From a virus, in IMG/VR virus record IMGVR_UViG_3300036766_002289, positions 28,056-92,055 of that record: 64,000 nucleotides of DNA. The stretch is one strand, 5' to 3'. A model generated the notes under the pieces. It saw nothing but the letters and a program-made list of their open reading frames with translations, was not told the origin of the DNA and did no database searches. Position numbers and translations under genes: made by a program. Below, piece by piece: positions 21,524 to 51,884 of this stretch (positions are counted from its first letter, which is position 1; each line of letters begins with the position of its first letter).

Positions 21524-21961
21524 ATGAAAAATTATTGGTTAGATAAGAAAAAGGGCGGATTTCCACAAGACGATGAATTTTCGAAAGTGGCGGGTTGTTG
21601 TGGTGATTTTGCTTGTAATTGCTCTGCTAATTTAGATATATTTTATGGGTCTCAGTTTGTTCAAAATGAAGAGATTTATGGCCGAGCGATAGAACGAAAC
21701 GAAAGTAAGGCTATTTGGAAAACTGAATTTACTCCTATATTAAGAGGCACAATGTTCGGTAAGGTCTATATGAATGGTGCCGAAATTTATGATTTTAGTT
21801 TTTGTTTTTCGGGCAGTGTTGTTTTGAAACAAGTTAATGATAGTGAGATGAAGATTTTGCGTATAAATTTAAAGGAAGCAACTGGAGAAATTGAAACTTG
21901 GTGGGATAAGTTGCCTATATTAGACACCATAATTAAGGTAAATTACGAATTTATTAGATGA
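21524..21961 (+). CDS. hypothetical Cys-rich protein, MKNYWLD family
   Basis: Start at the conserved MKNYWLDKK module; paralogue of 21973-22584. Confidence 0.45.
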   Translation: MKNYWLDKKKGGFPQDDEFSKVAGCCGDFACNCSANLDIFYGSQFVQNEEIYGRAIERNESKAIWKTEFTPILRGTMFGKVYMNGAEIYDFSFCFSGSVVLKQVNDSEMKILRINLKEATGEIETWWDKLPILDTIIKVNYEFIR

Positions 21962-21972
21962 ATTAGGAGACT

Positions 21973-22584
21973 ATGAAAAATTATTGGTTGGATAAAAGGT
22001 CTGATTTGCCAGGGTGGAAAGATGGTAAAATAGTTGACATGGATTTGTGGAAGGGCAAATGCTCTAAGTGTGGTGAGTATGAGTGGCCGTTTAACGATGA
22101 AAATATCATGATGCAAGGCGACCCTATGTGTGCATGTTACAGTGGTTATTGCAATTTAGATATTTTTTATCCTAGTAGGTTTATCCAGAATGAAACATTG
22201 GATGTTCGGAGTGATAATGGTTATATAACCACTTATCAGGTAATGCATACGCCTATTTTACCTGGAACAATGAGCGGTTATATTTGCTTAGAAGAACAAT
22301 GTCCGCCACTTAATGGTTGGAGTTTCACAGTAAATTCGGAAGGTAAGTTTGAAGTGAAGCGATATGGTGAATGGGCGAAGAATTCTTTATCTGGCGATGA
22401 CGACGTATTGACTTTGCAAAAATTAGCAGAAAGTGATGAACCACTAATTAGTTATTATGATGAAATTCATTATTGGGAAACAAAGTTAAATTGTGTGACA
22501 GGTATATTAGAACTTCATCATCATACTGTTGGACCTACACCAAAAATAGTTGCATCCTACGAATATGATAAGTGTGAGGTTTAG
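21973..22584 (+). CDS. hypothetical Cys-rich protein, MKNYWLD family
   Basis: aggag RBS; shares N-terminus and CNLDIFY segment with the previous gene. Confidence 0.5.
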   Translation: MKNYWLDKRSDLPGWKDGKIVDMDLWKGKCSKCGEYEWPFNDENIMMQGDPMCACYSGYCNLDIFYPSRFIQNETLDVRSDNGYITTYQVMHTPILPGTMSGYICLEEQCPPLNGWSFTVNSEGKFEVKRYGEWAKNSLSGDDDVLTLQKLAESDEPLISYYDEIHYWETKLNCVTGILELHHHTVGPTPKIVASYEYDKCEV

Positions 22585-22746
22585 ATAAGGAGTATTAACA
22601 TGAACTGCTCAGAATGCAAGAGATCATGTGATGAATTGCACGATTGCGATTGTGGAGAATACTCTGGCAAGTGCAATGAATGTTGGCAGAAAGTTCCTTC
22701 TAAGCATAGAGAAGAAGTCTGTGTTGTAGATTGGCTGGAAGATGAT

Positions 22747-22817
22747 GCGGCTGTGATGTAGTGGTAGCCTGCTTGCTTGCCGAGCAAGATGTTCGGGTCC
22801 GATTCCCGATAGCCGCT
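22747..22817 (+). tRNA. tRNA-Gly(GCC)
   Basis: Acceptor GCGGCTG/TAGCCGC, anticodon arm CTTGC-TTGCCGA-GCAAG, T-arm TCGGG-TCCGATT-CCCGA. Confidence 0.55.
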
Positions 22818-22820
22818 CTT

Positions 22821-23207
22821 ATGAATACAATAGAAGAAGCTTGTGATAAGATAAGAGAGTACTTAACTCAATGGTATATTGAGCATAAGAGTGCCATCGT
22901 CAAAACTTGTACCCCTTATGCTCAATATTTAAACGGTAGTTATTTGTATGACGCCAAACAAAAGTTTATTGAATTGAATCCAAAATATAAGAAATTTGAT
23001 TTTTATATTCATACTGGCTTTGATGTAGATGGCGATACTTGGCAACCTGGGTGTTTAGATGGTTGTTGCCAAACTCGGGCAAAAGTGCGTGGAATATATG
23101 TAGTGCCTATAGATTGGAAGCAGGCCAGAAATCTAGCTCTTAAAAAATCAAGAACACTCGCAATGATATCGAGATTTAAGTTTATGTCAAAATGGGTAGG
23201 ACAATGA
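22821..23207 (+). CDS. hypothetical protein
   Basis: ATG 22821 immediately after the tRNA; the listed start at 22761 would overlap the tRNA. Confidence 0.45.
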   Translation: MNTIEEACDKIREYLTQWYIEHKSAIVKTCTPYAQYLNGSYLYDAKQKFIELNPKYKKFDFYIHTGFDVDGDTWQPGCLDGCCQTRAKVRGIYVVPIDWKQARNLALKKSRTLAMISRFKFMSKWVGQ

Positions 23208-23560
23208 AAGATGAATTAACTTTAGAAGAATTCAAGCATATGAACGAAGAAGCCAAAGCGTTGAGAATACAATGGATGACTGAGTATCATCTAACTGAAG
23301 AGGAAATGGCGGAAAGTTTGATATATGATCCTCCAAGTGATGTGCAGAAGGAACAAGAAGAATTGGATGCAGTTAGGCACTGTGCTACCATCGACTTTTC
23401 TTGGCTTAAAGATTTGCATAAAGAGATATATAAGGAAAACGGACTCCCTGAAGACACAACTGGCAGGATAATTTGCATAGCTTGTAGAAAGCTTGTTTGG
23501 TTTGACGAAAAAGGTCTCGCTTATTGTAATTGTCATGCCGAAGGAATAGAACTTTTATGA
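23192..23560 (+). CDS. hypothetical protein
   Basis: ORF 122 aa. Confidence 0.45.
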   Translation: MGRTMKDELTLEEFKHMNEEAKALRIQWMTEYHLTEEEMAESLIYDPPSDVQKEQEELDAVRHCATIDFSWLKDLHKEIYKENGLPEDTTGRIICIACRKLVWFDEKGLAYCNCHAEGIELL

Positions 23561-23736
23561 CATACGTAAATCTAATAGTTAATGTTGGTTGTTTGAGCGA
23601 AGATGAGTGTGAGGTCATTGAAGCTGAGATTAGTGAGTTATTGGAAAGACATAAGATGAAATTGCATTCAACTCGTTCGGCACCTCAGCAAAGTTGGATA
23701 GATGAGGAATTGCAGTTTTATCCCGAAGATATGTAA
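23530..23736 (+). CDS. hypothetical protein
   Basis: ORF 68 aa. Confidence 0.35.
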   Translation: MSCRRNRTFMTYVNLIVNVGCLSEDECEVIEAEISELLERHKMKLHSTRSAPQQSWIDEELQFYPEDM

Positions 23737-23737
23737 T

Positions 23738-23809
23738 GGCCCGTTCGACTTCTAGAGAGGTCGCTTGATTCTCAATCAAGCTAGATGGGAGCGTAACCCA
23801 TACGGGTCA
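23738..23809 (+). tRNA. tRNA-Glu(CTC) with non-canonical T-loop AGCGTAA
   Basis: Acceptor GGCCCGT/ACGGGTC, anticodon arm CTTGA-TTCTCAA-TCAAG, T-arm ATGGG-AGCGTAA-CCCAT. Confidence 0.45.
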
Positions 23810-23928
23810 CTAACGAGTAGGATCGACATAGGCCGTCTGACAAACACTTGCACAGTCTAGTCGGACCTTTCCTTAACTGATCTAAAGAGTTTATTTTGGT
23901 GCAACGGGATAAACTTCTGCTCGTTTAT

Positions 23929-24000
23929 GCCGCATTAGTTTAGAAGTTAGAACATAGGACTTTCAATCCTAAGAAGAGGGAGCATTACCCTCATGCGGTA
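23929..24000 (+). tRNA. tRNA-Glu(TTC), second copy, non-canonical T-loop AGCATTA
   Basis: Acceptor GCCGCAT/ATGCGGT, anticodon arm TAGGA-CTTTCAA-TCCTA, T-arm GAGGG-AGCATTA-CCCTC. Confidence 0.45.
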
Positions 24001-24003
24001 CTA

Positions 24004-24204
24004 ATGTATATTGAAGAATGGCATAAATGCTGGTGCAGTTGTGAAGCCGTGAATTGGGTATGTTCAGGTAATCTAGAAGATTACACTGTGCCCGATGTTC
24101 ACGGCTTTAAGTGTTTTAAGTGTGGTGAAACTAATAAGTTTGACCTTGATTTGTTTGAAGAAGATGAGTTATACATTGTGGATGGCTTAGAAAGTCCTAA
24201 CTAA
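24004..24204 (+). CDS. small Zn-ribbon protein
   Basis: CWCSC...CFKCG cysteine pairs. Confidence 0.4.
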   Translation: MYIEEWHKCWCSCEAVNWVCSGNLEDYTVPDVHGFKCFKCGETNKFDLDLFEEDELYIVDGLESPN

Positions 24205-24205
24205 T

Positions 24206-24400
24206 ATGGAACGAGTAGAATTTGTAATTATTGAAACTGACGGATTTCATGAAACTTTGGCGTGTCCAAAATGCGGCAATATTTTTGAAATTGACGTTCA
24301 CACAGAGTTGAACCTTGTATTTGATAAGGAATACATGGGTCTAGTGAGTAAATGTCCTGATTGTGGGGCTTTACAAAAGGGCGATGAGGAGTTAGTATGA
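24206..24400 (+). CDS. small Zn-ribbon protein
   Basis: CPKCG...CPDCG. Confidence 0.4.
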   Translation: MERVEFVIIETDGFHETLACPKCGNIFEIDVHTELNLVFDKEYMGLVSKCPDCGALQKGDEELV

Positions 24401-24622
24401 TTTTCAAGGGTAAAGTTTGGAAATATCAACTTTTCAAAGAGGTTAGTATATGACTGAGAATGAATTCATGCGTGGAAAACTCTTGGATTATTATTCCACA
24501 CTTAATGTGGAAGGTGTCATAACAGAGTTGGAAATGGAAAGTGAAATGGATAATATTTCACTCAATATGTCTGAGTTAGAAGTTAAGAGGAAGTACAAAC
24601 GCTTAAAAGGGTTGGGCATTTC

Positions 24623-25027
24623 ATGAAAAAGTTACTCATTGTACTAGTTTTGTTATTAAGTCCAGCTTTATTTGCCGCTGATAAAGTTGAAAAACGAACT
24701 ATCGAAATCTACATGCAGAAAAAGAATTTTGATGATAACACAATTGGCTTTTATATGTGGGTGAACGATGCTGATTTTATCATTAGAAATAGTGCCCCGA
24801 ATGTTGATGTTGGGTATAGTTTTTCTGGGGGCATTTACTTGGAGAGTGACCGTCTAAGAACTGCTATGTTTTTCATCCACAATTGGAATGAGAAAAGTAG
24901 TAATTATTGCACCGTAATCGAATTTGGCGGAATACGTCCTGATGATATTCATATCTATCTCCCCGAGGGAGCAACGGCAAAAGTATACGCTAGTAGTTTA
25001 GATAGAATATATAAGAAGAAAGAATAA
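24623..25027 (+). CDS. secreted hypothetical protein
   Basis: Signal peptide MKKLLIVLVLLLSPALFA. Confidence 0.45.
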   Translation: MKKLLIVLVLLLSPALFAADKVEKRTIEIYMQKKNFDDNTIGFYMWVNDADFIIRNSAPNVDVGYSFSGGIYLESDRLRTAMFFIHNWNEKSSNYCTVIEFGGIRPDDIHIYLPEGATAKVYASSLDRIYKKKE

Positions 25028-25041
25028 AGCATACATATTGC

Positions 25042-25455
25042 ATGTTCAATGAATGGCTCTGTCTAAAAGAAGCAGCAAATCGTGGACTTTACCAGCAGTT
25101 GTTAGCAATGCGTCCACTAATGGCTCAAGCTGCTCAGAAGATTTATAATGAATGGAATCAGGAAGATGAATGCGACGTAGGTGGTATTTGTGACGAAATT
25201 GAACGAGCGGTTGCCACTGTAATCTCTATGCGAGTCAGGAATGCCAATACCACAGAAGGTGGCCAAGATGGTGACGATCATGCTTGGACAATTGTTTATA
25301 ATCGCAGTGAATCATATGGGGTAGACATACCGCCGCATGTATATGAAACTGGTGGTGGTTATTGCTGGAAAAAGGTTCCAGGTGTAGTTATTCAGGCTAA
25401 TGATGTTGTGGTATGGGATTTAGGAATTCATCCAAGCGAGTTTCAGGAACGGTAG
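25042..25455 (+). CDS. hypothetical protein
   Basis: ORF 137 aa. Confidence 0.45.
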   Translation: MFNEWLCLKEAANRGLYQQLLAMRPLMAQAAQKIYNEWNQEDECDVGGICDEIERAVATVISMRVRNANTTEGGQDGDDHAWTIVYNRSESYGVDIPPHVYETGGGYCWKKVPGVVIQANDVVVWDLGIHPSEFQER

Positions 25456-25489
25456 CTTTACAACGTCTTGGTTTCGTGCTATACTAATC

Positions 25490-26596
25490 ATGGAGGAACC
25501 AATGAAACTACCTACGCTTTATTCACGTCGTTCTGATGGCAAAGTCCAAATCTGGGAAAAAGAAATTGTAGACAATAAATACCGTACACATTCAGGCATT
25601 AAAGACGGTGAAATCGTCACTGCTGAGTGGACAGTGTGTGTAGAAAAGAACTTAGGCAAGACAAATTACATTGACGCCAAACATCAGGCAGTCACGGAAG
25701 CCAAGGCCGAATGGCAGAAGAAAAAAGATAAAGGTTATAAGGAAGATATCAAGGATATTGATAATTCCACTTTTTTTGAGCCGATGCTTGCCAAGGTTTG
25801 GCAGGATTATAAGGATGAGGCAATTTATCCTGCCTATGTCCAGCCTAAGTTAGACGGAATGCGTCTTATTGCAAATAAAGAAGGTCTGTGGACAAGGAAC
25901 GGCAAAGAGTATAAGTCTATTCCGCACATCTATGAAGCTCTGAAGCCTTTATTTAAATTCAACCCTAAATACATTTTTGACGGGGAGGTTTACGCGGATA
26001 AATTCGCGCACGATTTCAACAAAATCTGTTCGCTGGCTAAAAAGACTAAACCAACGGATGAAGACATTGCAGAGTCTGAGAAAAGTATTGAATATCATGT
26101 TTACGATTTCCCGTATTGGGATGATGTATTCAGTGCCCGTCATGCTGAGTTGCTTAAAGTCGCTAAGCATTTCAAGAACAAGAAATTAAAGATTGTTGAG
26201 ACGCATGAAGTTGCGTCTAGTAAAGAAATTGATACTCACTATGAGAAGTTTGTTCAGGACGGTTATGAGGGTTTAATGGTTCGCATGGATGCAAAGTATG
26301 AGAATAAGCGAACTAAGGTTCTGCTTAAGTATAAGGAATTTAAGGATGATGAGTATGAAATTTTGGATGTAGTGGAAGGTGTAGGCAATAAGAGTGGTGG
26401 TGCAGGGGCACTTGTTTGTAAGAACAAGGACAACAGCACGTTCCATTCTAACATTAAGGGCAATCGTGAGTTCTGTAAGGCCATGTTAATCAATAAGAAT
26501 GATTACATTGGCAAGATGGCGACTATTCAATTCTTTAATTTGACGGTGGATGGTGTGCCTCGATTCCCTTATTTCTTGAGGGTTCGTGATGAATAG
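25490..26596 (+). CDS. ATP-dependent DNA ligase (T7/PBCV-1-like minimal ligase)
   Basis: Adenylation motif I PKLDGMR (KxDG); motifs FDGEVY, EGLMV, LLKYK; ggagg RBS. Confidence 0.8.
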   Translation: MEEPMKLPTLYSRRSDGKVQIWEKEIVDNKYRTHSGIKDGEIVTAEWTVCVEKNLGKTNYIDAKHQAVTEAKAEWQKKKDKGYKEDIKDIDNSTFFEPMLAKVWQDYKDEAIYPAYVQPKLDGMRLIANKEGLWTRNGKEYKSIPHIYEALKPLFKFNPKYIFDGEVYADKFAHDFNKICSLAKKTKPTDEDIAESEKSIEYHVYDFPYWDDVFSARHAELLKVAKHFKNKKLKIVETHEVASSKEIDTHYEKFVQDGYEGLMVRMDAKYENKRTKVLLKYKEFKDDEYEILDVVEGVGNKSGGAGALVCKNKDNSTFHSNIKGNREFCKAMLINKNDYIGKMATIQFFNLTVDGVPRFPYFLRVRDE

Positions 26597-26721
26597 TTTT
26601 GATGTAGAAGTTATAATTCATTCTAGGAAAAAGTCATGGACATGGACATAGATAAATTTCAAACCAGAGCGGAATTTATTGATTCTGAAGATGGGGATTT
26701 TGAGGTAATGCACGCTAAGGA

Positions 26722-27090
26722 ATGTTCAAAATGAACGAGTTTGATTACGTGGAAAGTCTTGAATTTTCCGCTAGGATTAATGTATGCAGCGGTTTTAAAT
26801 GTGTGGTGAATAGTTTTCGGGATGATGAGATTATTCAGAAGTTAATTGCTGGGATGAGTGATTGGCGTAATCAGTTATCAGTTTTTGAGCGAGTGCAGTT
26901 AGTGTTGTTGAAAGATTCTGGAGGCGATGAATACGAACATCAGCATGACACAGCTATGGCGGCATATCTCTATGTACTTGGCCAGTGTAACATGGCTTTA
27001 GCTACATTGTGTTGTAATTTGGTGTTGGATATTGACCGTATATTTTGGGCACGCAAAATGGCGTGGGAATTAAAGTATGGACTGGCTTAA
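26722..27090 (+). CDS. hypothetical protein
   Basis: ORF 122 aa. Confidence 0.4.
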   Translation: MFKMNEFDYVESLEFSARINVCSGFKCVVNSFRDDEIIQKLIAGMSDWRNQLSVFERVQLVLLKDSGGDEYEHQHDTAMAAYLYVLGQCNMALATLCCNLVLDIDRIFWARKMAWELKYGLA

Positions 27091-27736
27091 ATTTGAAATC
27101 TTTGTCCGAGTCCTAATTTTTTATAGTATATTCAGCTTTTATGCCGAAGTTGATTTTGCTCAAGAAAACACAAGTAGCGGTTTTTGGTTATGGAGTGAGC
27201 GAATAGTCGCAATTCTATTTACTATTGAATATTTCTTAAGATGGAGTTGGTCAAAACATGGTTGGAAGTGGCCATTCACTTTTTATGCTGTTGTAGATTT
27301 ACTTGCAATTCTTCCTTTCTATGTTGGCCTTTTTGTTCAGCCACATCATCTTGGCGTTATTAGGTCTTTTCGTGTATTAAGGCTTTTAAAGCTTACACGT
27401 TACAGCATTGCCTTGGATAGGTTCTTGGAGAGTTTTAGAAGAATCAAGGACGAGTTGGCGATTATTGTAGTTTTCTTAATGATTGTTGTGTTTTTGGGGG
27501 CTACTTTATTATACGAATTTGAGCATCCTGCTCAACCTGATAAGATAACTTGTTTATCTGATGCTACTTGGCTTTGTTTTATTACCATCTCGACTATTGG
27601 CTACGGGGACATATTCCCAATAACATGGCCAGGAAGAATTGTTGTAATGGTCGTTTGTGTATTAGGGTTAGGTGTTTTTGGGTCATTTGTAAGTTTGCTG
27701 GGGAGTTCCCTAACTAACAAAGACTTGACAAAGTGA
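27077..27736 (+). CDS. voltage-gated potassium-channel-like protein (compact 6-TM Kv)
   Basis: K+ selectivity filter TISTIGYGD; S4-like IRSFRVLRLLKLTRYS with Arg at every third position; hydrophobic segments consistent with S1-S6. Confidence 0.7.
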   Translation: MDWLKFEIFVRVLIFYSIFSFYAEVDFAQENTSSGFWLWSERIVAILFTIEYFLRWSWSKHGWKWPFTFYAVVDLLAILPFYVGLFVQPHHLGVIRSFRVLRLLKLTRYSIALDRFLESFRRIKDELAIIVVFLMIVVFLGATLLYEFEHPAQPDKITCLSDATWLCFITISTIGYGDIFPITWPGRIVVMVVCVLGLGVFGSFVSLLGSSLTNKDLTK

Positions 27737-28034
27737 TTTTTTGTACTATGTTAATAGTAAAGGAGAATAACATGCTCTAGGTAGAAAACTGTGATTGTGT
27801 ATTTCATTTTAACAAAGCTAGTTTGGCTGACCCAACTCTTCCTGCTTGGGTTTTGAAGATAAAAGGTGAATCATATTACGTGACACATGTTACGTCTAAT
27901 GCTCCTTGGTCTACCAAGGAAACTCCTGATAATTCACATACAAAGGGAAGTTTGAAATTTAAGCGGGTGAATGTTGTAATTAATGATGATAAATCTGCTG
28001 ATATCAACCCTATATAAGTAAAAGGGGTGATATT

Positions 28035-28319
28035 ATGCAATTAGTAAGATTTAAGAATGCGGAAGGCTGTGCAACATGCACTCAAACAGTAAATTTTGCA
28101 ACTTTGCGAGCAATCGGCATGTTGAAAGCGAATGATGCCGATGACAATAGTTACTTTGTTAGAATTTCATTTGCTAACGGTGACACATATCTAGCCAGAG
28201 ATAATATGAGTCTTTCACAAGCAACTGATTACAGGAATTTGCTAGAAAGTTATTGGTTTGGTGTTGACACCAACAGTTCTTTTGGACTCGGGCTTGATAA
28301 GTGTGCGATTGATGCTTAA
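28035..28319 (+). CDS. hypothetical protein
   Basis: ORF 94 aa. Confidence 0.4.
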   Translation: MQLVRFKNAEGCATCTQTVNFATLRAIGMLKANDADDNSYFVRISFANGDTYLARDNMSLSQATDYRNLLESYWFGVDTNSSFGLGLDKCAIDA

Positions 28320-28342
28320 TACTATGTGGTAAAAGATGAGAA

Positions 28343-28364: not shown

Positions 28365-28381
28365 CCATTTAGGAGGCTAAA

Positions 28382-35427: not shown

Positions 35428-36207
35428 TTGGAGATAATCATGAATAAAGAACGTAGGGGCTTTATGGCTTGGCTAGCTGGGTTTTTTGGTCTTGGCGCGG
35501 TTACGCAATTAGGTGCGCAACCAGTAAGTATGACCAACAATCATCCAGTATATGGGAAACAAGGTGAATGGATTCTTTACAAACAAGATGTGCCAAATAA
35601 AAAAGGCATTATTGTCTTTACAATGAATGTTGGTAATCTTCCCCCCTTAAAAGCAGAAGCCTACATTGAAAGGATCAAAGATCAGTTCCGTAAAAGTGGC
35701 AACCCACAAGATTGGCAAGACTGGCAGCATATTTTTATGCCAGTCCGCCATCAAGAAACTAAGGTTGAGATTTTTTCATTTGAAAAGTGTGATTACATAG
35801 AGCCTATGAAAGTTCTGGGGGCTGTCGTTCCTTTTGTAGCCCCAAGTAAAGAATCTGTAAAGGATTATGTCCTTTTGATGTTAGGTGCGCCAGTTGTTAA
35901 GGTTGAATTAGATGATACTCAACTTGAATTTGCATATAACAGTACCAAAGAAGCTTTTGCACATGTGTCTGAGGCTAAGGGTAGCGTTTTGATGAAGTTT
36001 GAGGGTAGTCGCCCTTGGGCTGGTTTGGGCGATGAGATTTTCAAGCAAATGGTGTATGCTCGGGCCATGATTATGTTGGGTCATATTCGTGGTAAGTATA
36101 TCTCACTTCCAGGTTCAGGCGGTAATATTGTGATGGATGGTGAAACACTTAGAGAAGAAGGTAATACATTGCTAGCTGAGTGTATGGAGGAACTAAGTAA
36201 TTTATGA
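35428..36207 (+). CDS. hypothetical protein
   Basis: ORF 259 aa; ggag RBS. Confidence 0.5.
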   Translation: MEIIMNKERRGFMAWLAGFFGLGAVTQLGAQPVSMTNNHPVYGKQGEWILYKQDVPNKKGIIVFTMNVGNLPPLKAEAYIERIKDQFRKSGNPQDWQDWQHIFMPVRHQETKVEIFSFEKCDYIEPMKVLGAVVPFVAPSKESVKDYVLLMLGAPVVKVELDDTQLEFAYNSTKEAFAHVSEAKGSVLMKFEGSRPWAGLGDEIFKQMVYARAMIMLGHIRGKYISLPGSGGNIVMDGETLREEGNTLLAECMEELSNL

Positions 36208-36391: not shown

Positions 36392-36586
36392 TTAAGCCTT
36401 AATATCGGATTTTCTAACAGTCAGGACATATCTTTGGACAAAGATATTGTCAAGTTGAAATAAAAGATCAATTAGGTCGAAGTCAACGCCTACAATAGTG
36501 CCATACATGCCGTAGAATCGGTGATCTGTGCCAATATATTTTACCCTTTTGCCTATTCTGTAAGGATTTAACCAATAGTTTTTCAC
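36392..36586 (-). CDS. small hypothetical protein, MKNYWL family, GTG start
   Basis: Minus-strand ORF starting with the conserved tgaaaaactattggtt module. Confidence 0.35.
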   Translation of the reverse strand: MKNYWLNPYRIGKRVKYIGTDHRFYGMYGTIVGVDFDLIDLLFQLDNIFVQRYVLTVRKSDIKA

Positions 36587-41082: not shown

Positions 41083-41419
41083 GAAAGTTGCTTTACAAAT
41101 TCAGGATTCGTGCTAGTATATATTGTTAGATGGGCAGTGTCCTCGACGGCTTGAGGGCTGGACTTATATTCCAGCACATGTGGTTCAACTCCATAACTGC
41201 CTACTTCATGAAGAATTTTTGGGTGAATACAATAGATCGGGCTTTAAGGCGATTAGGATACATGCCCGATACAATTAACGGTCTTTTAGATAAAGAAAAA
41301 GAAGCCGTTATCATTGAACAATACCTCTATATTTTGCGAGAAGATAATGAAGACTGTATGCCGCTTTCTTTGGAAGAGATGGCGGAATACGTCGTTGACT
41401 ACTTTAGAAAAGGTGTTAA

Positions 41420-41896
41420 ATGTTGACTCCGCGTGACCATTTGGATAATTTGGTCCGTCACATTGATCTAGTTCGTGAAGCATGTCTTTTGTTAGGTCGT
41501 CGGTTAATGGATTCTGGCCGACTTGAATTTGGCAGATTACTTATCGCTGCTGGATTCCACCATGATGTTTCCAAATTCTTCGGCATTGAATGGAATTATC
41601 TTCATGCAGGACGCGACGTTCCCAAAGAACAACTCGATTTAGCAATTAAACAACATACTCAAACCAACTCTCATCATCCCGAATATTGGGGTGGCGTAGA
41701 AAATATGCCAGAGATAGCAGTTGCAGAAATGGTCTGTGACTGGTATGCTCGTAGTCAAGAGTTTGGCACTTGCCTGCGTGACTGGATTAAGCAAAATGCA
41801 ATTGACAGATTCAAGATTGACCTAGAATCTGAGCAATACTTATGGATTTATAAGTTTGTAGACCTTCTTTTAGAAGACCAATTTGTGAGGAATTAA
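41420..41896 (+). CDS. possible HD-domain phosphohydrolase
   Basis: AAGFHHDVSKF and NSHHPEYWGG resemble H..HD and downstream His motifs; weak. Confidence 0.4.
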   Translation: MLTPRDHLDNLVRHIDLVREACLLLGRRLMDSGRLEFGRLLIAAGFHHDVSKFFGIEWNYLHAGRDVPKEQLDLAIKQHTQTNSHHPEYWGGVENMPEIAVAEMVCDWYARSQEFGTCLRDWIKQNAIDRFKIDLESEQYLWIYKFVDLLLEDQFVRN

Positions 41897-41898: not shown

Positions 41899-42234
41899 AT
41901 GGACAGACGAACTTGGTTCGCATCTTTGTTTGGCGGTGTTGCTGCTATCTTAGGTTATAAGACTGCACAGATTTCCAGTATGGGAGCAACAGAAGCCAGG
42001 CTTCTCAATGACCTGATCTCCAGTGGGGAGCAGGCAACAAAAAAAGTCAATGACCTTAGAGACTCAGGCTTAGTGTCTGACTACGACATTTTGACAAAAT
42101 GGATGGGTTATTCAGCAAATGATGCCACGGAGATGGTGACTCGTCTTAAAATTCAGAAACTTGAAGAAATTAAGCTGCAAGTTTTGGCTCAAAACCCACA
42201 GCTATTGGGAATTGGTGTTCCTAAAAATGCATAA
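41899..42234 (+). CDS. hypothetical protein
   Basis: ORF 111 aa. Confidence 0.4.
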   Translation: MDRRTWFASLFGGVAAILGYKTAQISSMGATEARLLNDLISSGEQATKKVNDLRDSGLVSDYDILTKWMGYSANDATEMVTRLKIQKLEEIKLQVLAQNPQLLGIGVPKNA

Positions 42235-45049: not shown

Positions 45050-45400
45050 TAAAGGTGTATGTATGAAAATGGAGACCTGTATGCATGTCGCCGCCAGAAT
45101 TTGGTGCGACAAGGAATTTGAGCATATCGTAATGGATACGGATGTCGCAATGAAGATTGCTAAGATATTGTTCTTTGTAGCCAATGCAGATGAGGCTAGT
45201 CGTGTATTATTGGCGGATACAACTAAGTCACAGTGAAGTGTATTGGTCGTCGAGTATCAATTATGGTCTGTTCTCAGTACCGCGTGAAGCGGTTTTGGAT
45301 GGGCATATGCTTAATGCATTTTTGACTTCTGTTGTGAAGATTGATAAAATTTCAAAAGAACAATATAATGAATTTATGGTCGATTGATATATAAATTCAT

Positions 45401-45472: not shown

Positions 45473-45476
45473 CTGC

Positions 45477-45548: not shown

Positions 45549-45551
45549 CTT

Positions 45552-45788
45552 ATGAAATTTGATTTTAAAAATCGAAAGTATCATAGTCTAAAGATTACAG
45601 CCACCAATCCAAAAGATATTTGGTTAAGTGATGACGAAGGTAATCTAGTCCAAAAAGAAGATGTTTTAATGGATACTAGCTTAATTCCTGGCAATTACTT
45701 TGTTGAGTTTGGGCTTGGCAATAAGCAATACTCAATCAAGCTAGATAAAAATTTAGAATTCAAACAATCAGATTTTGAAGGAAATTAA
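45552..45788 (+). CDS. hypothetical protein
   Basis: ATG 45552 just after the tRNA. Confidence 0.4.
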   Translation: MKFDFKNRKYHSLKITATNPKDIWLSDDEGNLVQKEDVLMDTSLIPGNYFVEFGLGNKQYSIKLDKNLEFKQSDFEGN

Positions 45789-46009
45789 TGGAAGATATAG
45801 ATTCGACTGAAGTAATTGACAATGAATATTGGATAGTTAGTCTTGGGAATGTGGCCGAATTAATGGGTCGGGCGCAGTTAAGTATAGGTAAATCCATTGC
45901 AAGTCCCAACCATGTTCAAGGTGAATTGGCGTTAGCCTTTTTGAAAAAGGCTGTCAGAGAACTTGAAGAAACGCTTGATAAAAATTCAAGCGAACAATCG
46001 AAGGAGTGA
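45788..46009 (+). CDS. hypothetical protein
   Basis: ORF 73 aa. Confidence 0.4.
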   Translation: MEDIDSTEVIDNEYWIVSLGNVAELMGRAQLSIGKSIASPNHVQGELALAFLKKAVRELEETLDKNSSEQSKE

Positions 46010-46012
46010 GTC

Positions 46013-46372
46013 ATGTCCACTGAATTGCGGGCTGCTATCATTACTCTTTTGGAGAATGGTGGTCAGGTAAACATGGACGCTGACCTTGCTTGTTACTCAA
46101 CCCGTGACGGATACTACTTTGTTGAATATTTTCTTAATCCAGATACTGTTGATACCATGAACCTTACTGCCCATGAAAAGAAACTTTTGGATAATGAAGA
46201 AGAGTTGATGGAGATATTTGATAAGCCAGAAGAAGCGGCAGACTTCTACATGAGGCTTACTAATGGCAGAATGATTCCTGTGCCAAGTTATTGCCGTGAT
46301 AAGTCCCCAAAGAAGTCCATCAAGGAAAAAGTTGTTGAAGTAAAAGTTGCAGAAAAAGATGATTATTTCTAG
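46013..46372 (+). CDS. hypothetical protein
   Basis: ggag RBS; ORF 119 aa. Confidence 0.45.
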   Translation: MSTELRAAIITLLENGGQVNMDADLACYSTRDGYYFVEYFLNPDTVDTMNLTAHEKKLLDNEEELMEIFDKPEEAADFYMRLTNGRMIPVPSYCRDKSPKKSIKEKVVEVKVAEKDDYF

Positions 46373-46385
46373 TATATAAGTGTAT

Positions 46386-46457
46386 GCGGCTGTAACTCAA
46401 TGGCAGAGTGCTGGTTTTCCAAGCCAGATGTTGTGGGTTCAAGTCCCATCAGCCGCT
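46386..46457 (+). tRNA. tRNA-Gly(TCC), second diverged copy
   Basis: Acceptor GCGGCTG/CAGCCGC, D-stem ACTC/GAGT, anticodon arm CTGGT-TTTCCAA-GCCAG, T-loop TTCAAGT. Confidence 0.55.
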
Positions 46458-46461
46458 CTGA

Positions 46462-46710
46462 ATGCGAAATCACTGGACAGATAAAAGTGCAATTAAGAGG
46501 TACATAGACCTTCTCGTTAAAGAGGTGGCCAGATTATGTACAGCGGATTACGATACCGTTAGAGAACTGCTTGAGCAAGAAATTGTTAAAAGGCCGTTTT
46601 CTCCAGAAGAAATAGATGAATTGGTTACTGCTAGTGACGACGATATTCTTATAGAAGCTGGAAGAATATACAGTTATCTAACTAAGTCCCAACGTAAAGG
46701 GGTATGGTAA
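46462..46710 (+). CDS. hypothetical protein
   Basis: ORF 82 aa. Confidence 0.4.
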   Translation: MRNHWTDKSAIKRYIDLLVKEVARLCTADYDTVRELLEQEIVKRPFSPEEIDELVTASDDDILIEAGRIYSYLTKSQRKGVW

Positions 46711-46851
46711 TGCCAGAAGGTAAAAGTCTTCTTCAAATTGCTTATATCTGCATAAGTATAATTGCCATTCTATGTGCAATGATATTATCTTGTGTTCTGC
46801 AAGATAAAGATATTTTTATATCTACCTCCATCGTTGTCGCATTTATTGGAT

Positions 46852-47340
46852 TTATGTCTTATATGGGCGATCTTTGGGATTGAGCTTATTCCATAATATC
46901 TTAACTGGCTTTTTGAAATAATGTCCGACAAATCCCCCTATTTGTTTCATGCCAAGTCTTTTTCTTATTGCATTTTCTAAATTTGTTGATTGACACTCGA
47001 CCCTGGTGGTTGAGAAGAACCATATGAATGTCATTGATGGCACAGCAATATACCAAGGTGCGTAAATTGGCAATATAAAGAATGAGCCTAATACCCCAAG
47101 AATTACTAGTATATGTAATGTGACAAGTGTATAAAAGCTAAACCATAGCCATAATGGTGCTGGCGGAATTGGTTTGTCAACGATTCTTCTTAAGCTTGAA
47201 AGGAATTTTTTGGTGATTTCATTATTACTCTTTTTACCGATTTCCTCATCAAGTTTGATGAGCAACTCGGTAAGTTTGTCTTCTGGCAGGTACGTTAATG
47301 CTAGTGCTACGATACGCGGAGAGTCATCGCTTGCTACCAT
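46852..47340 (-). CDS. membrane protein (minus strand)
   Basis: 162-aa ORF with three or four TM segments. Confidence 0.45.
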   Translation of the reverse strand: MVASDDSPRIVALALTYLPEDKLTELLIKLDEEIGKKSNNEITKKFLSSLRRIVDKPIPPAPLWLWFSFYTLVTLHILVILGVLGSFFILPIYAPWYIAVPSMTFIWFFSTTRVECQSTNLENAIRKRLGMKQIGGFVGHYFKKPVKILWNKLNPKDRPYKT

Positions 47341-47385
47341 CTTGGACTCCTTTCAACCTATATAGTAATATGACCTCACGGTTTT

Positions 47386-48189
47386 GTGCAACAGGAAATT
47401 GAAAAAAATATTATGAATAAGATTATCATTAAAAACGAGAAGCAAATAAGAGGTATTCGTAAAAGTTGTCAAATCGCAGCAGCAACTTTAGAATATGCTA
47501 AAAAATCTATTGCTGTAGGAATGACTACAGAAGAATTGGACAGGGCTATAGAAAACTTCATTAGGTCTAAGGGGGCGACTTCAGCGACATTAGAGTATAA
47601 AGGTTTTCATAAAGGTCAGCCAAAATTTCCAAAGAGTTGCTGTATTTCAGTAAATGAAGAAGTCTGTCATGCAATTCCAGATAGCTATATTATCAAAAAC
47701 GGAGACATAGTTAGTATAGATGTAGCTGTTATCTTGAATGGTTATTATGGTGATAATTGTACTACAGTTCCAGTTGGTAACATATCAGATGACGCCAGAC
47801 ATTTGATTGAGGTCGCTAAAAAATGCTTAGATTTAGGAATAAGACAAGTTGCTCCTGGTCGCAAAACTGGTGTGATTGGTCAAGCAATTTATCAATATGC
47901 AATTTTACAGGGCTGTACAATAGTAGAGGAATTTTGTGGTCATGGTGTAGGAATGGCTTTTCATGAACAACCACAAATTCTTCATGTTGCAAAACAAGAT
48001 GATGGTGATATAATGAAGCCTGGGATGATTTTCACCATAGAACCGATGGTCAATTTGGGCGGTCCTGAAGTAATAATGGATAATGATGACCAATGGACCG
48101 TTAGAACCGTGGACCAAAGTTTGTCGGCTCAATTTGAGCATTCGGTTCTGGTAACGACTAATGGATATGAAATACTAACTTTACCATGA
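47386..48189 (+). CDS. map: methionine aminopeptidase (type I)
   Basis: Conserved FCGHGVG, metal-ligand Asp/His/Glu context, overall MAP length. Confidence 0.8.
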   Translation: MQQEIEKNIMNKIIIKNEKQIRGIRKSCQIAAATLEYAKKSIAVGMTTEELDRAIENFIRSKGATSATLEYKGFHKGQPKFPKSCCISVNEEVCHAIPDSYIIKNGDIVSIDVAVILNGYYGDNCTTVPVGNISDDARHLIEVAKKCLDLGIRQVAPGRKTGVIGQAIYQYAILQGCTIVEEFCGHGVGMAFHEQPQILHVAKQDDGDIMKPGMIFTIEPMVNLGGPEVIMDNDDQWTVRTVDQSLSAQFEHSVLVTTNGYEILTLP

Positions 48190-48464
48190 TTTATTTTATA
48201 CTAATGGCCAACTGTTTGTCGATGGGTCTGGGGCTTTATCTCGCATTTGATGGACAATTTGTATTAAGCATCGTTTGTTTATTGATTTCATCAATAGGAT
48301 TTCGTCATCTTTGCATGGAAATTGATAAGCAGGCCCGAAGGAAGAAAAAAGAGAAGAGAATAAAACCAAAACTTGAAAAGTCGAAACCTAAAAAGGTGGA
48401 GAAGGTCAAGGAACAGATGAGTGTGGAAGCTCAACTTAGACTTAATAAGTTCTCCATTAACTAG
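48186..48464 (+). CDS. membrane protein with Lys-rich tail
   Basis: ORF 92 aa. Confidence 0.4.
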   Translation: MIYFILMANCLSMGLGLYLAFDGQFVLSIVCLLISSIGFRHLCMEIDKQARRKKKEKRIKPKLEKSKPKKVEKVKEQMSVEAQLRLNKFSIN

Positions 48465-48472
48465 GGGGCATT

Positions 48473-49231
48473 ATGTTAGAGATTATCGGCTCCGTCGCAA
48501 CTGTTTTGCTTATCATTTTGATTGTTGTCTCTCTTAAAAAGAGTGGCAAAATCGTTTTCATGGGCAGGTCTGAGAAAATAGATTTTGAAAAAGACATTAC
48601 TACCATTCCACCGATCCCCATATCTGCGGCCACTTGTAGCCATAGCTGGGATATAGTAGATGATAAATTGCTAGAAATGCCGCATGAGAAGAAGCATGTC
48701 CTGGTATTACAATGCCGTACTTGCGGAATGTTAGATAAGACTATGGCAGTGACTAGCACTGCGCCCAAACCGCTCCCACCCCCGCCGCTACCACCATGTA
48801 ATCATAGTTGGGTTGCAGTAACTGATAATACGCTTGATGTAGCACACGAAAAGAAAATTGTTGTTATCTTAACCTGCAAGAATTGTGGGGCTATAGAGAA
48901 GACTGTTGAGACCACTAGCAAAGCACCCCCGCCACCACAAGTTCCACTTCCAAAGGCTGAATGCCGCCATAAATGGGAAGTGGAAAAGAGAGTGTTGCTA
49001 GATTCTGCATACGAGCAAATGTTAGAGAGCATTAAGGTTAAGACAAGTTCTTATAGTAGTGCCAAAAAGGTTGACCCAAGTAAAGAATTAGATTTGGATT
49101 TAAATAAGGCACCAACTTGGATGTTTCAAAAGACTTATGTGTGTATCAGGGTTTGCACGTTATGTGGCGAGATTGATAAGACAATAGCTTCGAATTTTGA
49201 TAAAGAAGAAAACGAGGAGGAGATATCATGA
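48473..49231 (+). CDS. membrane-anchored protein with three internal C-x-H-x-W...C-x2-C-G repeats separated by Pro-rich linkers
   Basis: Repeats CSHSWDIV..CRTCG, CNHSWVAV..CKNCG, CRHKWEVE..CTLCGE. Confidence 0.5.
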   Translation: MLEIIGSVATVLLIILIVVSLKKSGKIVFMGRSEKIDFEKDITTIPPIPISAATCSHSWDIVDDKLLEMPHEKKHVLVLQCRTCGMLDKTMAVTSTAPKPLPPPPLPPCNHSWVAVTDNTLDVAHEKKIVVILTCKNCGAIEKTVETTSKAPPPPQVPLPKAECRHKWEVEKRVLLDSAYEQMLESIKVKTSSYSSAKKVDPSKELDLDLNKAPTWMFQKTYVCIRVCTLCGEIDKTIASNFDKEENEEEIS

Positions 49232-49406
49232 GCGAATTTACTTGGCCTTGGGAATGGGATTGGAATTGGCCTTTTGCCGCTATTTGTGGCGTTGGTCTGT
49301 TTGTCCTTGGAATCGTTCTACATCTTGTCTGTTTTCCTGGTATTGCTGCCATTATTATCGGCGGTGTAGTTGGTGCTTTTGCAGGAACTTATGAGTGGTT
49401 TGAACT

Positions 49407-49712
49407 ATGAAATCTCCATCAGTTTGCCCATGTTGCGGGCTTACTTGTTTCCAGGGACGGTTTAAGATATGTAAGAAAGAACATTGGGATTATCCTGATG
49501 ATGGTGCTGAAGTATGGTGCCAGTTTTGTAATACATGGTTTATGTGGAATGAAGAGAAACAGATTGCAAAAGTGATAGAGACCGCATTCCCGCGTGGCCA
49601 TAGGGGTAATAAGGGTGAGATTGTCGGCAAGCCGATTAAAGTTTTAGCAACGGCTGAATGGGATATGGTGTCGCAACAAAGAACCGACCAAGAAGACCTT
49701 ATCTGGGAGTAA
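49407..49712 (+). CDS. Cys-rich hypothetical protein
   Basis: CPCCG..C...CQFCN. Confidence 0.4.
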   Translation: MKSPSVCPCCGLTCFQGRFKICKKEHWDYPDDGAEVWCQFCNTWFMWNEEKQIAKVIETAFPRGHRGNKGEIVGKPIKVLATAEWDMVSQQRTDQEDLIWE

Positions 49713-49715
49713 ACT

Positions 49716-50060
49716 ATGAGTACGTTCAGTAGAGATATGGGTGAGTGTGTTTTGTACACGTTACTTAATCTTTCAGATGATAAAAATAACAATGATGGTC
49801 TACCGACCGAAATGGCTGGTTGGGTGAAAGAAAAAATTGAAGCTTTTGTTGTAAGTCCATACTCAGACATGGAGTTATATGATTTTCTTGATAGCGTAGC
49901 GAGGATTCCAATTGAAAGATTTGGTGGTGGTTGCGTAGGAGATATTAGTGGATTCATCCAGGCAGCGTGTGATGTTAAAAAATGTTATGACCGTCCCGAA
50001 GATGGTGATAAGAAGTTTCTTGATAAGGAAGAATGTAGGAAAAAATTGGAGAAAAGATGA
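49716..50060 (+). CDS. hypothetical protein
   Basis: ORF 114 aa. Confidence 0.4.
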   Translation: MSTFSRDMGECVLYTLLNLSDDKNNNDGLPTEMAGWVKEKIEAFVVSPYSDMELYDFLDSVARIPIERFGGGCVGDISGFIQAACDVKKCYDRPEDGDKKFLDKEECRKKLEKR

Positions 50061-50485
50061 CAGGCATATTTGGATTTTTTGAAGAATACAGGTTCCTTTC
50101 TAACTTTTACCCAGCCAAAGTTGAGTTCGATGGTCTGGAGTACAGTTCCACCGAACACGCATACCAAGCCGCTAAAACGGATGACCCTGCTGAAAGACGT
50201 AGAATCAGGGAAACCCAGAAATTTGGCGAAGCTAAGAGATTAGGAAAAAAAGTCAAGATACGTCCTGATTGGGAAAAGGTTAAGTTCGAAGTAATGGAGG
50301 ACTTAGTAAGACAGAAGTTTACTAAGCATAAAGAGTTAAAGGAAAAGCTCTTGGAAACAGGCGACCAATACTTAGAAGAGACAAACACTTGGGGCGATAA
50401 AATTTGGGGAGTCTGCAAAGGTGTAGGGCAGAATCATCTTGGGAAAATCCTAATGAAAATTAGGGGAGAATTAAGAAATGAGTGA
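50057..50485 (+). CDS. NADAR (YbiA/DUF1768) domain protein
   Basis: FLSNFYPA..F.G..YSSTEHAYQAAK signature. Confidence 0.6.
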   Translation: MTGIFGFFEEYRFLSNFYPAKVEFDGLEYSSTEHAYQAAKTDDPAERRRIRETQKFGEAKRLGKKVKIRPDWEKVKFEVMEDLVRQKFTKHKELKEKLLETGDQYLEETNTWGDKIWGVCKGVGQNHLGKILMKIRGELRNE

Positions 50486-50768
50486 TATTCAAACAGGGAT
50501 TCGCTATACTATTCAACGACAGGGATTTAGTTATGATGAAGAAGAAAGGGAATGGACAACTTGTTATCATGAGGGTAACTTGATTGACACTCCAGACCGT
50601 GAATGGATTGCAGCTATGATGGAGTTTTTATCTAAAACAGAAAGAAAATCTTATCGTTTCCGTATATTGAAAATTGAGACGAGTGTTATAGGCATGGACA
50701 CGATTAGGGAAGCAATTATTGCGGACCTTGTTAAGTCTGCATATGGGGATCAATCTAAGCCCCATTAA
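50478..50768 (+). CDS. hypothetical protein
   Basis: ORF 96 aa. Confidence 0.4.
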   Translation: MSDIQTGIRYTIQRQGFSYDEEEREWTTCYHEGNLIDTPDREWIAAMMEFLSKTERKSYRFRILKIETSVIGMDTIREAIIADLVKSAYGDQSKPH

Positions 50769-51081
50769 GAAAATCTTTATACCTGTCTTTAAGCTCTTGA
50801 TAGTTTTTCTTTTTTTGGGTGCCCTGTCGGAATAGGCAAAGAATAATTGTACTAAAGAAATTGTAGGCTTTGCCTTTTTCTCTGTCATATCTTGGCAGTT
50901 TGTCGAAACAAATCATGACTGCTTCTTGGATATAGTCATCTCGGTCGGTGAGTATTTTCTTAATGTCTAAACCATTAACTATTCGCTCTGCGACCCAATA
51001 AAAAGCTTCGCAGAGCTTGTCTTCACTTATTTTATTATCTAAAAAATCAGAAACTGCTTGTTCAAATTCTGAAGCATTCAT
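50755..51081 (-). CDS. minimal sigma-factor-like protein (sigma70 region 2 only; T4 gp55-like)
   Basis: IQEAVMICFDKLPRYDREKGKAYNFFSTIILCLFRQ resembles sigma70 region 2.1-2.2; minus strand. Confidence 0.45.
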   Translation of the reverse strand: MNASEFEQAVSDFLDNKISEDKLCEAFYWVAERIVNGLDIKKILTDRDDYIQEAVMICFDKLPRYDREKGKAYNFFSTIILCLFRQGTQKKKNYQELKDRYKDFLNGA

Positions 51082-51461
51082 GAATTAAGATAGTGCGATA
51101 ATATCTTTAATTACTTTTTCTAGTAATTTTTCCTTTTTAGCTTCGTCTACATTGTATAGTAAACCATTGAGTTTAGTGACCCACTGTTCAAGTTGGTTGA
51201 CGATTAATGCATCATCTTGACTTGTCGTCAAATCCACATTGTTATTGGTGAGGGCGGCAATCTCCTCAGTCTTATTCTGTGTGAGCCATTCGTTAAATTT
51301 CATACTTTATTTATATTAACCATATATATTTTAATGAAGAATTATTGGCTAGATCGAAGAAAAGAGAAAAAAGAAAGTAAAAGCTGGAATGTAGCCGATT
51401 TTAATCGGATTCTTTTGAATAAAATGAGGCAAGCTCAATTGAACAAAATAAGAAAAAAACC

Positions 51462-51884
51462 TTAGATGAATATAATTGCGGCTGCAATAGTATTAAAGTA
51501 AAGAGTGCCTTTTAGACCAATAGCCGTGTTGTTTTCATGCATATTTTCCTGAACATCTATATTATGATACATGATTTCTAGGAATATTTTCTTCTGCCAG
51601 AGTGGTTCTCTTGCTGTAGCCATTAGTTTTTGCAACATTCCGTTAATATGTTCTTTGTTCTTAGCGACGGCAGAACCTTTAGCCTCAAGGTTCATTTGCA
51701 GTCCTTGCGTAGCTCTTTCTTCAGTAATTAAATCGAATTTTAAGTCATTAATGCCGAATCCATTGATTTTTGGGATTTGACTCAATGATTGGTTAATAAC
51801 AATCTGAATTTCTCTCATGGCTTCTTTGCCTTCTGGAGAGATGTTTTCTACCAACCTATTCTCGATGTATTGCTGAAAGTCCAT
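51462..51884 (-). CDS. hypothetical protein (minus strand)
   Basis: ORF 140 aa. Confidence 0.45.
   Translation of the reverse strand: MDFQQYIENRLVENISPEGKEAMREIQIVINQSLSQIPKINGFGINDLKFDLITEERATQGLQMNLEAKGSAVAKNKEHINGMLQKLMATAREPLWQKKIFLEIMYHNIDVQENMHENNTAIGLKGTLYFNTIAAAIIFI

Follow-up and report, generated by a model that had tools for sequence, protein, structure and literature searches.

The stretch of viral DNA analyzed here, hereafter the window, comprises 64,000 nucleotides (positions 28,056 to 92,055) of the IMG/VR virus record IMGVR_UViG_3300036766_002289, and several of its small genes begin with nearly the same sequence encoding the peptide MKNYWLD, hereafter the tag. A preliminary description of the window had noted four gene starts encoding MKNYWL(D/N), and these were borne out. 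We scanned the window with the 20-nucleotide pattern TGAAAAAYTATTGGYTRRAT, with 100 dinucleotide-preserving shuffles as the null, and matches were found at 21525 (plus strand), 21974 (plus), 36585 (minus), and 51335 (plus), the last with one mismatch (AAG for AAA). Four copies were observed against 0.02 expected, none of the 100 shuffles reached four, and the start of an open reading frame (ORF) coincides with every match. A six-frame peptide scan of the window added two further carriers with degenerate tags, and the six genes, which constitute five families, are as follows.

21524..21961, plus strand: gene A, 145 amino acids, tag MKNYWLDKK at 21524-21550
21973..22584, plus strand: gene B, 203 amino acids, tag MKNYWLDKR at 21973-21999
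36392..36586, minus strand: gene C, 64 amino acids, GTG start, tag MKNYWLNPY at 36560-36586
41208..41426, plus strand: gene E, 72 amino acids, degenerate tag, start reads MKNFWVNTID
46462..46710, plus strand: gene F, 82 amino acids, degenerate tag, start reads MRNHWTDKSA
51334..51465, plus strand: gene D, 43 amino acids, very basic, tag MKNYWLDRR at 51334-51360

The four genes first noted had been described as otherwise different, which holds for C and D, each a separate family, but not for A and B, which are paralogs (34% identity, E=2e-11), and the four therefore make up three families. Genes E and F are true members, because their orthologs carry fuller tags: the gene E orthologs P0019 and L130:2103 read MKNFWLDVV (L-numbers denote loci or contigs of relatives, and P-numbers homologous proteins) and the ortholog at 241804 of the uncultured phage LR756511 reads MRNFWLSKI, and the gene F ortholog L130:7661 reads MRNYWTDKS. 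The gene A homologs P0005-P0008 retain the tag, and gene D has a near-identical counterpart in P0010 and similar syntenic genes in LR756511 at 230451 and 535233. Pfam and PHROGs scans of the six tagged window proteins returned no significant match; in a predicted model, the body of the gene C product resembles a KOW/SH3-like (KOW/NusG C-terminal domain-like) beta barrel. Gene E begins 4 nucleotides after a tRNA-Ile gene (41132-41204) and gene F 4 nucleotides after a tRNA-Gly gene (46386-46458), an arrangement also kept in the relative L130, and the mRNA 5′ ends of E and F may therefore be produced by tRNA processing.

To describe codon usage within the tag, we compiled 33 instances that were found via the peptide or via homology, with codon choice playing no part. 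Trp at position 5 is present in 33/33, and Asn at position 3 is likewise invariant while its third codon position shows maximal entropy (AAT 17, AAC 16). Position 2 is Lys, encoded by AAA in 12 and AAG in 11, or Arg in seven, from four codons; Leu at position 6 uses five codons, and the Leu, Lys, and Arg codons vary generally. Position 7 is D, N, E, or Q in 28/33, with S also occurring, and position 8 is K or R in 28/33. The consensus is best written M-[KR]-N-[YFH]-W-L-[DNE]-[KR]-[KR], a module of seven to nine residues in which residues 8 and 9 are usually K or R. The window copies differ mostly by synonymous changes that match the codon usage of the genome, and relatives of 50-55% G+C encode the tag as ATG AAG AAC TAC TGG CTC GAC AAG AAG, so that the peptide is held constant between genomes of 36% and 55% G+C. 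No conserved DNA was found upstream of the start codons among the window copies, and nucleotide identity between copies stops within about 24 nucleotides and is interrupted by synonymous changes.

The synonymous variation, the unconserved upstream DNA, and the recoding of the tag in relatives of higher G+C together indicate that selection acts on the peptide and not on the nucleotides. The translational regulatory element that the preliminary description had offered as one possibility does not survive this comparison, and an RNA operator, a translational repressor site of the RegA kind, or another cis-acting RNA or DNA element was rejected on the same grounds. A role in RNA for the ATG and TGG triplets alone stays formally conceivable, because neither has synonymous codons. 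Chance or codon bias as the source of the tag was rejected from the shuffling result together with the codon table.

The tag is found on at least 18 unrelated families, as judged by blastp clustering after removal of the tag, and roughly a dozen further tagged families were seen later without formal clustering. It is kept among diverged orthologs in every family examined: members of the A/B family at 30-50% identity carry MKNHWLDKK, MKNYWLQKK, and MKNQWLKKE, and the tag of the C family reads MKN[YF]WL[NDG]. Dissimilar tagged genes also stand in tandem arrays, in L041 (three genes), L102 (three), L007 (three), L135 (two), L136 (four), and L138 (three, on a contig of 532,729 bp). Homologs with and without the tag occur. 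A tagged L033 protein reads MKNYWLDNKEGVS-METCLHVAARIWCDKEF, with the original Met preserved behind the tag. The A/B family protein P0004 begins MNRFPQDDE where gene A has MKNYWLDKKKGGFPQDDE. A small protein resembling sigma-70 region 2 is tagged in L136 (7212-7592) and L138 (10074-10439), with Pfam E values of about 0.002-0.003, below the cutoff, whereas the protein of the window and the two copies of LR756511 are untagged; most of its homologs lack the tag. A tblastn search from L138:10074 reached the sigma-like gene of the window with E=4.9e-16. The untagged counterparts in the window are:

45063..45236, plus strand: untagged homolog of the tagged L033 protein, reads MKMETCMHVAARIWCDKEF; the L130 homolog is likewise without a tag
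50755..51081, minus strand: untagged small protein resembling sigma-70 region 2 (Pfam Sigma70_r2, E=0.0017, below the curated cutoff)

The tag has evidently been gained or lost on homologous proteins, and the existence of homologs with and without it, together with the tandem arrays, shows that the module moves. In the A/B family, tag and core are separated by a linker of 0 to about 150 residues. In the predicted model of gene B the tag has a predicted local distance difference test (pLDDT) score of about 36; in the confident model of gene C (pLDDT 89) the barrel starts at residue 14 and the tag has a pLDDT of 68. The models place the tag as a flexible appendage outside the folded domain. Taken together, it is a portable N-terminal appendage, conserved at the peptide level, specific to one lineage, and attached to many unrelated, mostly small proteins.

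Two known kinds of short protein signal were considered and rejected. Sec, Tat, and lipoprotein signal peptides have a basic N-region followed by a hydrophobic core of about 7-15 residues; the tag has no such core, its Y-W-L being followed by D and by polar residues rich in K and R. A sliding-clamp-binding motif was rejected by reasoning, in that most sigma-like homologs lack the tag whereas paralogs of a capsid domain, described below, carry one.

To determine how widely the tag is distributed, we searched with a codon-degenerate 24-nucleotide pattern for MKN[YH]WLDK, which gave 10 IMG/VR loci, several of them clustered. The same pattern gave only six scattered, chance-like matches in 596 Gb of GTDB species genomes, for example a hydrolase starting MKNYWLDKS. 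In a metagenome scan with a 20-mer of the tag, the matches listed were mostly chance in-frame ones away from gene starts. A 40-column tag profile returned at least 32 candidates from a protein database, and an exhaustive representative protein search with the tagged proteins (E up to 0.001) returned the query families only. Megablast of 20 kb of the window against INPHARED phages gave no close match, and tblastn of gene B against the phage collection found a single relative, LR756511.1, an uncultured phage with a complete genome of 595,163 bp, which we take to be a member of a huge-phage accession series. No homology to gene B was seen in that search for phage G, the only megaphage in cultivation. 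The protein of gene B is itself recorded on a JGI contig of 590,099 bp. The distribution places the tag in a lineage of phages of about 0.5-0.6 Mb.

The preliminary description had suggested a search for more copies, and these exist both in the window (E and F) and in LR756511, which carries about 10-12 tagged genes, none of them off the main coding strand. The window corresponds to the region at 209-242 kb, where six of these genes are located, and it therefore probably holds about half of the tag copies of its genome. The M24 methionine aminopeptidase ORF of LR756511 is preceded in frame by TTG-RNFWLHGRIAT (232210), a possible tagged form. A full-text literature search for MKNYWL found nothing, the huge-phage paper (PMC7162821) makes no mention of the tag, and a jumbo-phage review has no entry for a targeting sequence. 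The same huge-phage paper describes basic and aromatic N-terminal extensions on phage ribosomal protein S21 (PMC7162821). This protein was rejected as an explanation of the tag, with no S21 homolog found in LR756511 or the window. The tag seems to be new to the literature searched; it resembles leaders of the T4 capsid-targeting sequence (CTS) style, and its function is a prediction.

LR756511 has a T4-type head module, whose genes are the following.

LR756511 523506-524981: major capsid protein, gp23 (Pfam Gp23, 2.5e-86)
LR756511 525018-525950: scaffold
LR756511 525953-526621: prohead protease, gp21 (Peptidase_S77, 2.5e-27)
LR756511 526639-528489: head protein of 616 amino acids
LR756511 531014-533587 (L156/L157): portal, gp20, with an intein-like insertion (Portal_T4, 2.6e-73)
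LR756511 535401-537242: large terminase, T4-type terminase domains (Pfam)

The insertion in the portal matches Intein_splicing over residues 151-330 at 33.8 bits, just under the Pfam cutoff of 35.8 bits. Capsid, portal, or terminase genes adjoin tagged genes in L005, L033, and L098. The tagged gene at LR756511 535233, a basic protein of 42 residues, lies between the terminase and the portal, and L033:3233 occupies the same position; the tagged array of L098/L102 follows directly after the capsid gene, and in L005 three tagged genes accompany those for the capsid, scaffold, and protease.

The bodies of several tagged proteins are themselves related to head proteins. The conserved core of the A/B family, NLDIFY..FxQNE..TPxLPGTMxG..SYEYN, is by blastp a paralog of the insertion domain of the gp23-type capsid protein: gene A matches residues 126-250 of the LR756511 capsid protein with E=2e-13, and the insertion domain is also matched by gene B (1.5e-10), LR756511 307348 (3.5e-15), and L041:1968 (2.7e-24). 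Other carriers join the tag to further pieces. L135:1239 consists of the tag and a copy of the capsid N-terminal propeptide, ending RLSNE where the capsid protein has RLFNE; L102:286 of the tag and capsid residues 365-394 (70% identity); L136:7707 of the tag, capsid 325-355, and portal 728-750; L102:492 of the tag and portal 695-740; and L013:1097 and L005:6367 of the tag and portal 427-472. In LR756511 and the window, capsid or portal fragments were found in 3/17 tagged against 7/1103 untagged genes (Fisher p=3e-4). Further ORFs built from pieces of head proteins, the two of the window being untagged, are:

Window 35428-36207
Window 41899-42234
LR756511 125926, 195953, 224453, 430481, and 588014

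The pieces in the small head-derived ORFs comprise the capsid insertion domain, capsid 317-476, and portal 505-542 and 678-741, and such ORFs might act as assembly regulators, decoys, or competitors. A reading as genes in pieces was rejected because LR756511 has, besides the fragments, capsid and portal genes of full length, and in L098 the C-terminal half of the capsid protein (307-491) is intact. The window ORF at 41899-42234 has a Tat-like N-terminus (MDRRTWFASLFGG) fused to a C-terminal segment of the portal.

A second N-terminal module, M(K)(T)F.(E/Q)(W/F)(L/I)..(L/A).E, was found in the same genomes, with 21 N-terminal matches in the 1120 ORFs of the window and LR756511 against 1.9 expected. 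Its pattern agrees with the leaders of the T4 internal proteins. The class is larger than the set of tag carriers, with about 20-40 genes in LR756511, and in the window it comprises:

17680-17898, minus strand: T4-like leader, MNFRQWLEGLE
17895-18446, minus strand: T4-like leader, MFKEWIEIRE-AQG
25042-25455, plus strand: T4-like leader, MFNEWLCLKE-AAN
51085-51303, minus strand: T4-like leader, MKFNEWLTQNKTEE
6921 (plus strand) and 51884 (minus strand): looser matches to the T4-like leader

The sequence TA[AT]ATA stands 3-6 nucleotides before the start in 14/21 genes with a T4-like leader against 45/1099 others (p=2e-14), and in 3/16 genes of the MKNYWLD class against the same 45/1099 (p=0.03), namely C, D (TATATA, 5 nucleotides before the ATG), and LR756511 413852. 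The octamer TATAAATA, the T4 late-promoter sequence, lies 4 nucleotides before the ATG of the genes starting at 18446 (minus) and 51303 (minus), and this position suggests late mRNAs with little or no leader for these two genes. The exact octamer is absent upstream of the tagged genes of the window on their own strand.

Like the tag, the T4-like megaphage leader is N-terminal, occurs on many unrelated proteins, and is found in the same genomes; the two have in common an M-K-x-aromatic start and a W-L pair, and some MKNYWLD genes have the same TA[AT]ATA box just before the start. Unlike the tag, the T4-like leader has two extra residues between the aromatic residue and the Trp, is followed by a cleavage-like site ending in Glu, and is strongly tied to the late-promoter-like box. 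LR756511 398794 (MKNFRVWLEEK) looks intermediate between the two classes, and no homology was found between their protein bodies. The lineage apparently sorts a large number of proteins by means of leaders, as T4 does, and MKNYWLD is evidently a related but distinct code beside the T4-like leader.

We tentatively interpret the tag as a portable N-terminal address or docking peptide, probably for loading into the procapsid, the assembling prohead, a reading to which we give somewhat less than an even chance. An exposed patch of an aromatic residue, Trp, and Leu, with the basic residues that follow, would dock on one common partner, which would give every carrier the same destination. The likeliest destination would be the assembling T4-type prohead, after the CTS model of the T4 internal proteins; there the tagged cargo would be packaged, and it might afterwards be injected. 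The prohead is preferred as partner because of the T4 precedent, the shared head machinery, the M-K-[T/N]-[Y/F] start, the nearby head genes, and the head-derived cargo. Because the same genomes already carry canonical T4-like leaders, MKNYWLD would be a second, distinct address, probably uncleaved. Similar DNA at many gene starts may in addition permit the exchange of cassettes as a secondary effect.

The T4 precedent is close in several respects. The internal proteins Ip1-3 of T4 have in common only the N-terminal leader that directs their packaging (PMC12373910; PMC3012670). The leaders, read from AF158101, are MKTYQEFIAE for IpII and IpIII and MKTFKEFTST for IpI. Both the CTS and the tag are short N-terminal peptides on mostly small, otherwise unrelated phage proteins, with diverse cargo that differs between related phages. 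T4 and the tag lineage use the same gp20, gp21, and gp23 head machinery (known for the lineage from relatives), and in both, tRNA genes and homing endonucleases share the variable regions in which the carrier genes are found, ipI of T4 being about 1 kb from the tRNA/segB cluster. The likeness of the peptides themselves is limited to the M-K-[T/N]-[Y/F] start: Y-W-L-D-K-K of the tag is contiguous and basic, whereas Y-Q-E-F-I-A-E of T4 is helical-amphipathic and acidic. Tag carriers are also far more numerous than those of T4, with about 10-12 in each genome and no fewer than 18 families in total, and their cargo, for which packaging is a prediction, differs from that of T4 in that a sigma-like factor and fragments of the capsid and portal proteins are part of it.

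Among the functions suggested in the preliminary description, a targeting peptide analogous to the CTS fits best, the tag being conserved as a peptide, portable, found in genomes with T4-type head genes, and attached to head-derived proteins, but the residue spacing and cleavage site of T4 are missing. Several observations weigh against prohead loading. The T4 pattern MKT[YF].EF[IT], with hydrophobic residues at i, i+3, and i+4, is not followed by the tag with its contiguous Y-W-L, and is fitted much better by the separate leader class, so that MKNYWLD perhaps specifies another destination. No consistent gp21 cleavage site, (L/I)-x-E, was found behind the tag, and A, B, C, E, and F have none within about 15 residues; W-L-D in the tag is only loosely analogous to such a site, since position 7 is also N, E, S, or Q. 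By hand count, about half of the tagged proteins have a Glu somewhere in positions 8-13, compared with about 37% estimated from composition, and a Glu-ending cleavage site after the tag was rejected for want of a clear excess. The T4-type head module is known from tag-carrying relatives and not from the window; only one of about 11 tagged genes of LR756511 lies inside the head module, most being far off; and capsid and portal fragments are found in untagged ORFs too. The sigma-like factor and the KOW-like domain are not typical virion proteins.

A more elaborate form of prohead loading, which we consider rather unlikely, is that two N-terminal address codes, a cleavable MKTF.EWL..E and an uncleaved MKNYWLDKK, load a large and fast-evolving cargo into the capsid for injection. 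The T4-like leader would then serve about 20-40 genes per genome, many of them seemingly driven by the late-promoter-like box that abuts the start, and the MKNYWLDKK tag about 10 genes per genome, with a cargo in which mimics of the phage's own portal and capsid segments would stand beside basic micro-proteins, KOW-like domains, and a sigma-like factor. In that case, the set of proteins that an uncultured giant phage injects could be deduced straight from its sequence.

Address peptides in front of variable cargo are known from other systems. The payload loading signals of Photorhabdus virulence cassettes (PVC) and other extracellular contractile injection systems (eCIS), and the MIX motif of type VI secretion system (T6SS) effectors, are N-terminal modules tens of residues long. 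Like the tag they place a conserved N-terminal address before variable cargo, and cargo genes of these systems are arrayed beside structural genes, as in L136 and L138, where a tagged array with the sigma-like gene first is inserted right after baseplate genes (a gpV-like hub, gp25, a wedge protein, and a P2 gpI-like protein) and a gene for a tail-fiber N-terminal domain. The PVC/eCIS and MIX signals are longer than the tag, unrelated to it in sequence, and belong to cellular injection machines and not to phages with a T4-type head. The baseplate-adjacent insertion is absent from LR756511.

This array also bears on the best-surviving rival, in our judgment an unlikely one, according to which the tag is a short linear motif through which diverse proteins gather at one hub or place other than the virion interior, for example a membrane surface, the tail or baseplate, or the machinery of transcription or replication. 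A hub of this kind would accommodate the sigma-70 region 2-like factor and the KOW/NusG C-terminal domain-like barrel among the tagged proteins, the location of the L136/L138 array directly behind baseplate and tail-fiber genes, the terminal and flexible tag with its variable linker, and the presence of a separate T4-like leader class for capsid loading. However, no candidate hub was identified, the enriched paralogs of the capsid insertion domain and the capsid and portal fragments are hard to reconcile with a transcription or replication hub, and the baseplate-adjacent array is an insertion missing from LR756511.

Two further explanations are improbable. The first is that the tag is a stability or folding signal, an N-terminal degron or chaperone-recruiting site that places its carriers under shared turnover or folding control. 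A hydrophobic core with basic flanks resembles the preferences of DnaK and trigger factor and, loosely, the N-motifs of ClpX, and an exposed, flexible tag that is optional on orthologs fits a generic function independent of cargo. The invariant Trp5 and Asn3 nevertheless exceed the specificity of the known degenerate motifs, no protease or adaptor gene is linked to the tag, and the association with head-derived cargo would go unexplained. The second, of equally low probability, is a role at the level of translation, in which initiation or early elongation would be adjusted by the opening codons or by the peptide as it emerges from the ribosome, for instance where an mRNA has no Shine-Dalgarno sequence or leader. 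About half of the tagged genes have no obvious Shine-Dalgarno sequence (read by eye, in tagged genes only), the starts of E and F just behind tRNA genes and the TA[AT]ATA box before C, D, and LR756511 413852 could point the same way, and the ATG and TGG triplets leave room for it as noted above. Against this, A, B, and several relatives have good Shine-Dalgarno sequences, every position able to vary synonymously does so, and the conservative exchanges (K/R, Y/F/H, D/N/E) imply that the chemistry of the residues is selected.

That the tag is mainly a recombination module, a repeat of about 24 nucleotides that allows cassette swapping or the spread of homing endonucleases while the peptide is inert, is very improbable: homologs with and without the tag, the original Met behind the tag in L033, the tandem arrays, the chimeras of capsid and portal fragments, and the homing-endonuclease-like genes beside some tagged genes are all compatible with it, but identity is limited to coding triplets and broken by synonymous changes, the peptide is constant across genomes of very different G+C, and a neutral peptide would not hold Asn3 and Trp5 invariant. 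Of the recombination hotspot proposed in the preliminary description, what stands is that the module moves, with recombination at most secondary; the short, synonymously interrupted identity does not fit the rest.

Should the tag serve for loading or sorting, as prohead loading would have it, sequence alone would list which proteins of uncultured megaphages (0.5-0.6 Mb) share one destination, and these may enter the host together with the DNA. The T4 internal-protein model would then extend to the largest known phages, with a far larger set of proteins that includes regulators and mimics of structural proteins, and the tag would offer a nine-residue handle for experiments and for the packaging of foreign proteins. 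Even apart from function, that 18 or more unrelated families keep so short a peptide is a clear and testable signal.

The window contains 39 tRNA genes, many of them duplicated, over a span of 8345-46458, and its accessory genes include a DNA ligase, an M24 methionine aminopeptidase, PTH2, NADAR, a ThiF-family protein, and a DUF559 endonuclease. Homing-endonuclease-like genes near tagged genes also occur in relatives: L013 has an ORF of 228 residues, HNH-like by eye, upstream of its tagged gene, and L129 has HNH, AP2, and LAGLIDADG genes near its tagged gene. The other features of the window are:

3297-4238 and 4246-5193, plus strand: adjacent paralogous genes of about 314 amino acids, MTVEFFPGPDSDFWTVPAGV and MTVLLFPGPTSTTWTVPPGV; no Pfam match for the product of 3297-4238
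5238-5885, plus strand: ThiF-family protein
20637-21503, plus strand: DUF559/Vsr-like endonuclease with helix-turn-helix domains, immediately upstream of gene A, probably a homing endonuclease
47386-48189, plus strand: M24 methionine aminopeptidase
51908-52825: ORF resembling SAICAR synthase (purC) by eye
54430-54846, plus strand: PTH2 peptidyl-tRNA hydrolase
55530-62978, plus strand: ORF of 2482 amino acids with extensive internal repeats

The ORF of 2482 residues received no Pfam assignment; its self-matches show 39-89% identity over hundreds of residues, and the repeats of this region continue to about 63800.

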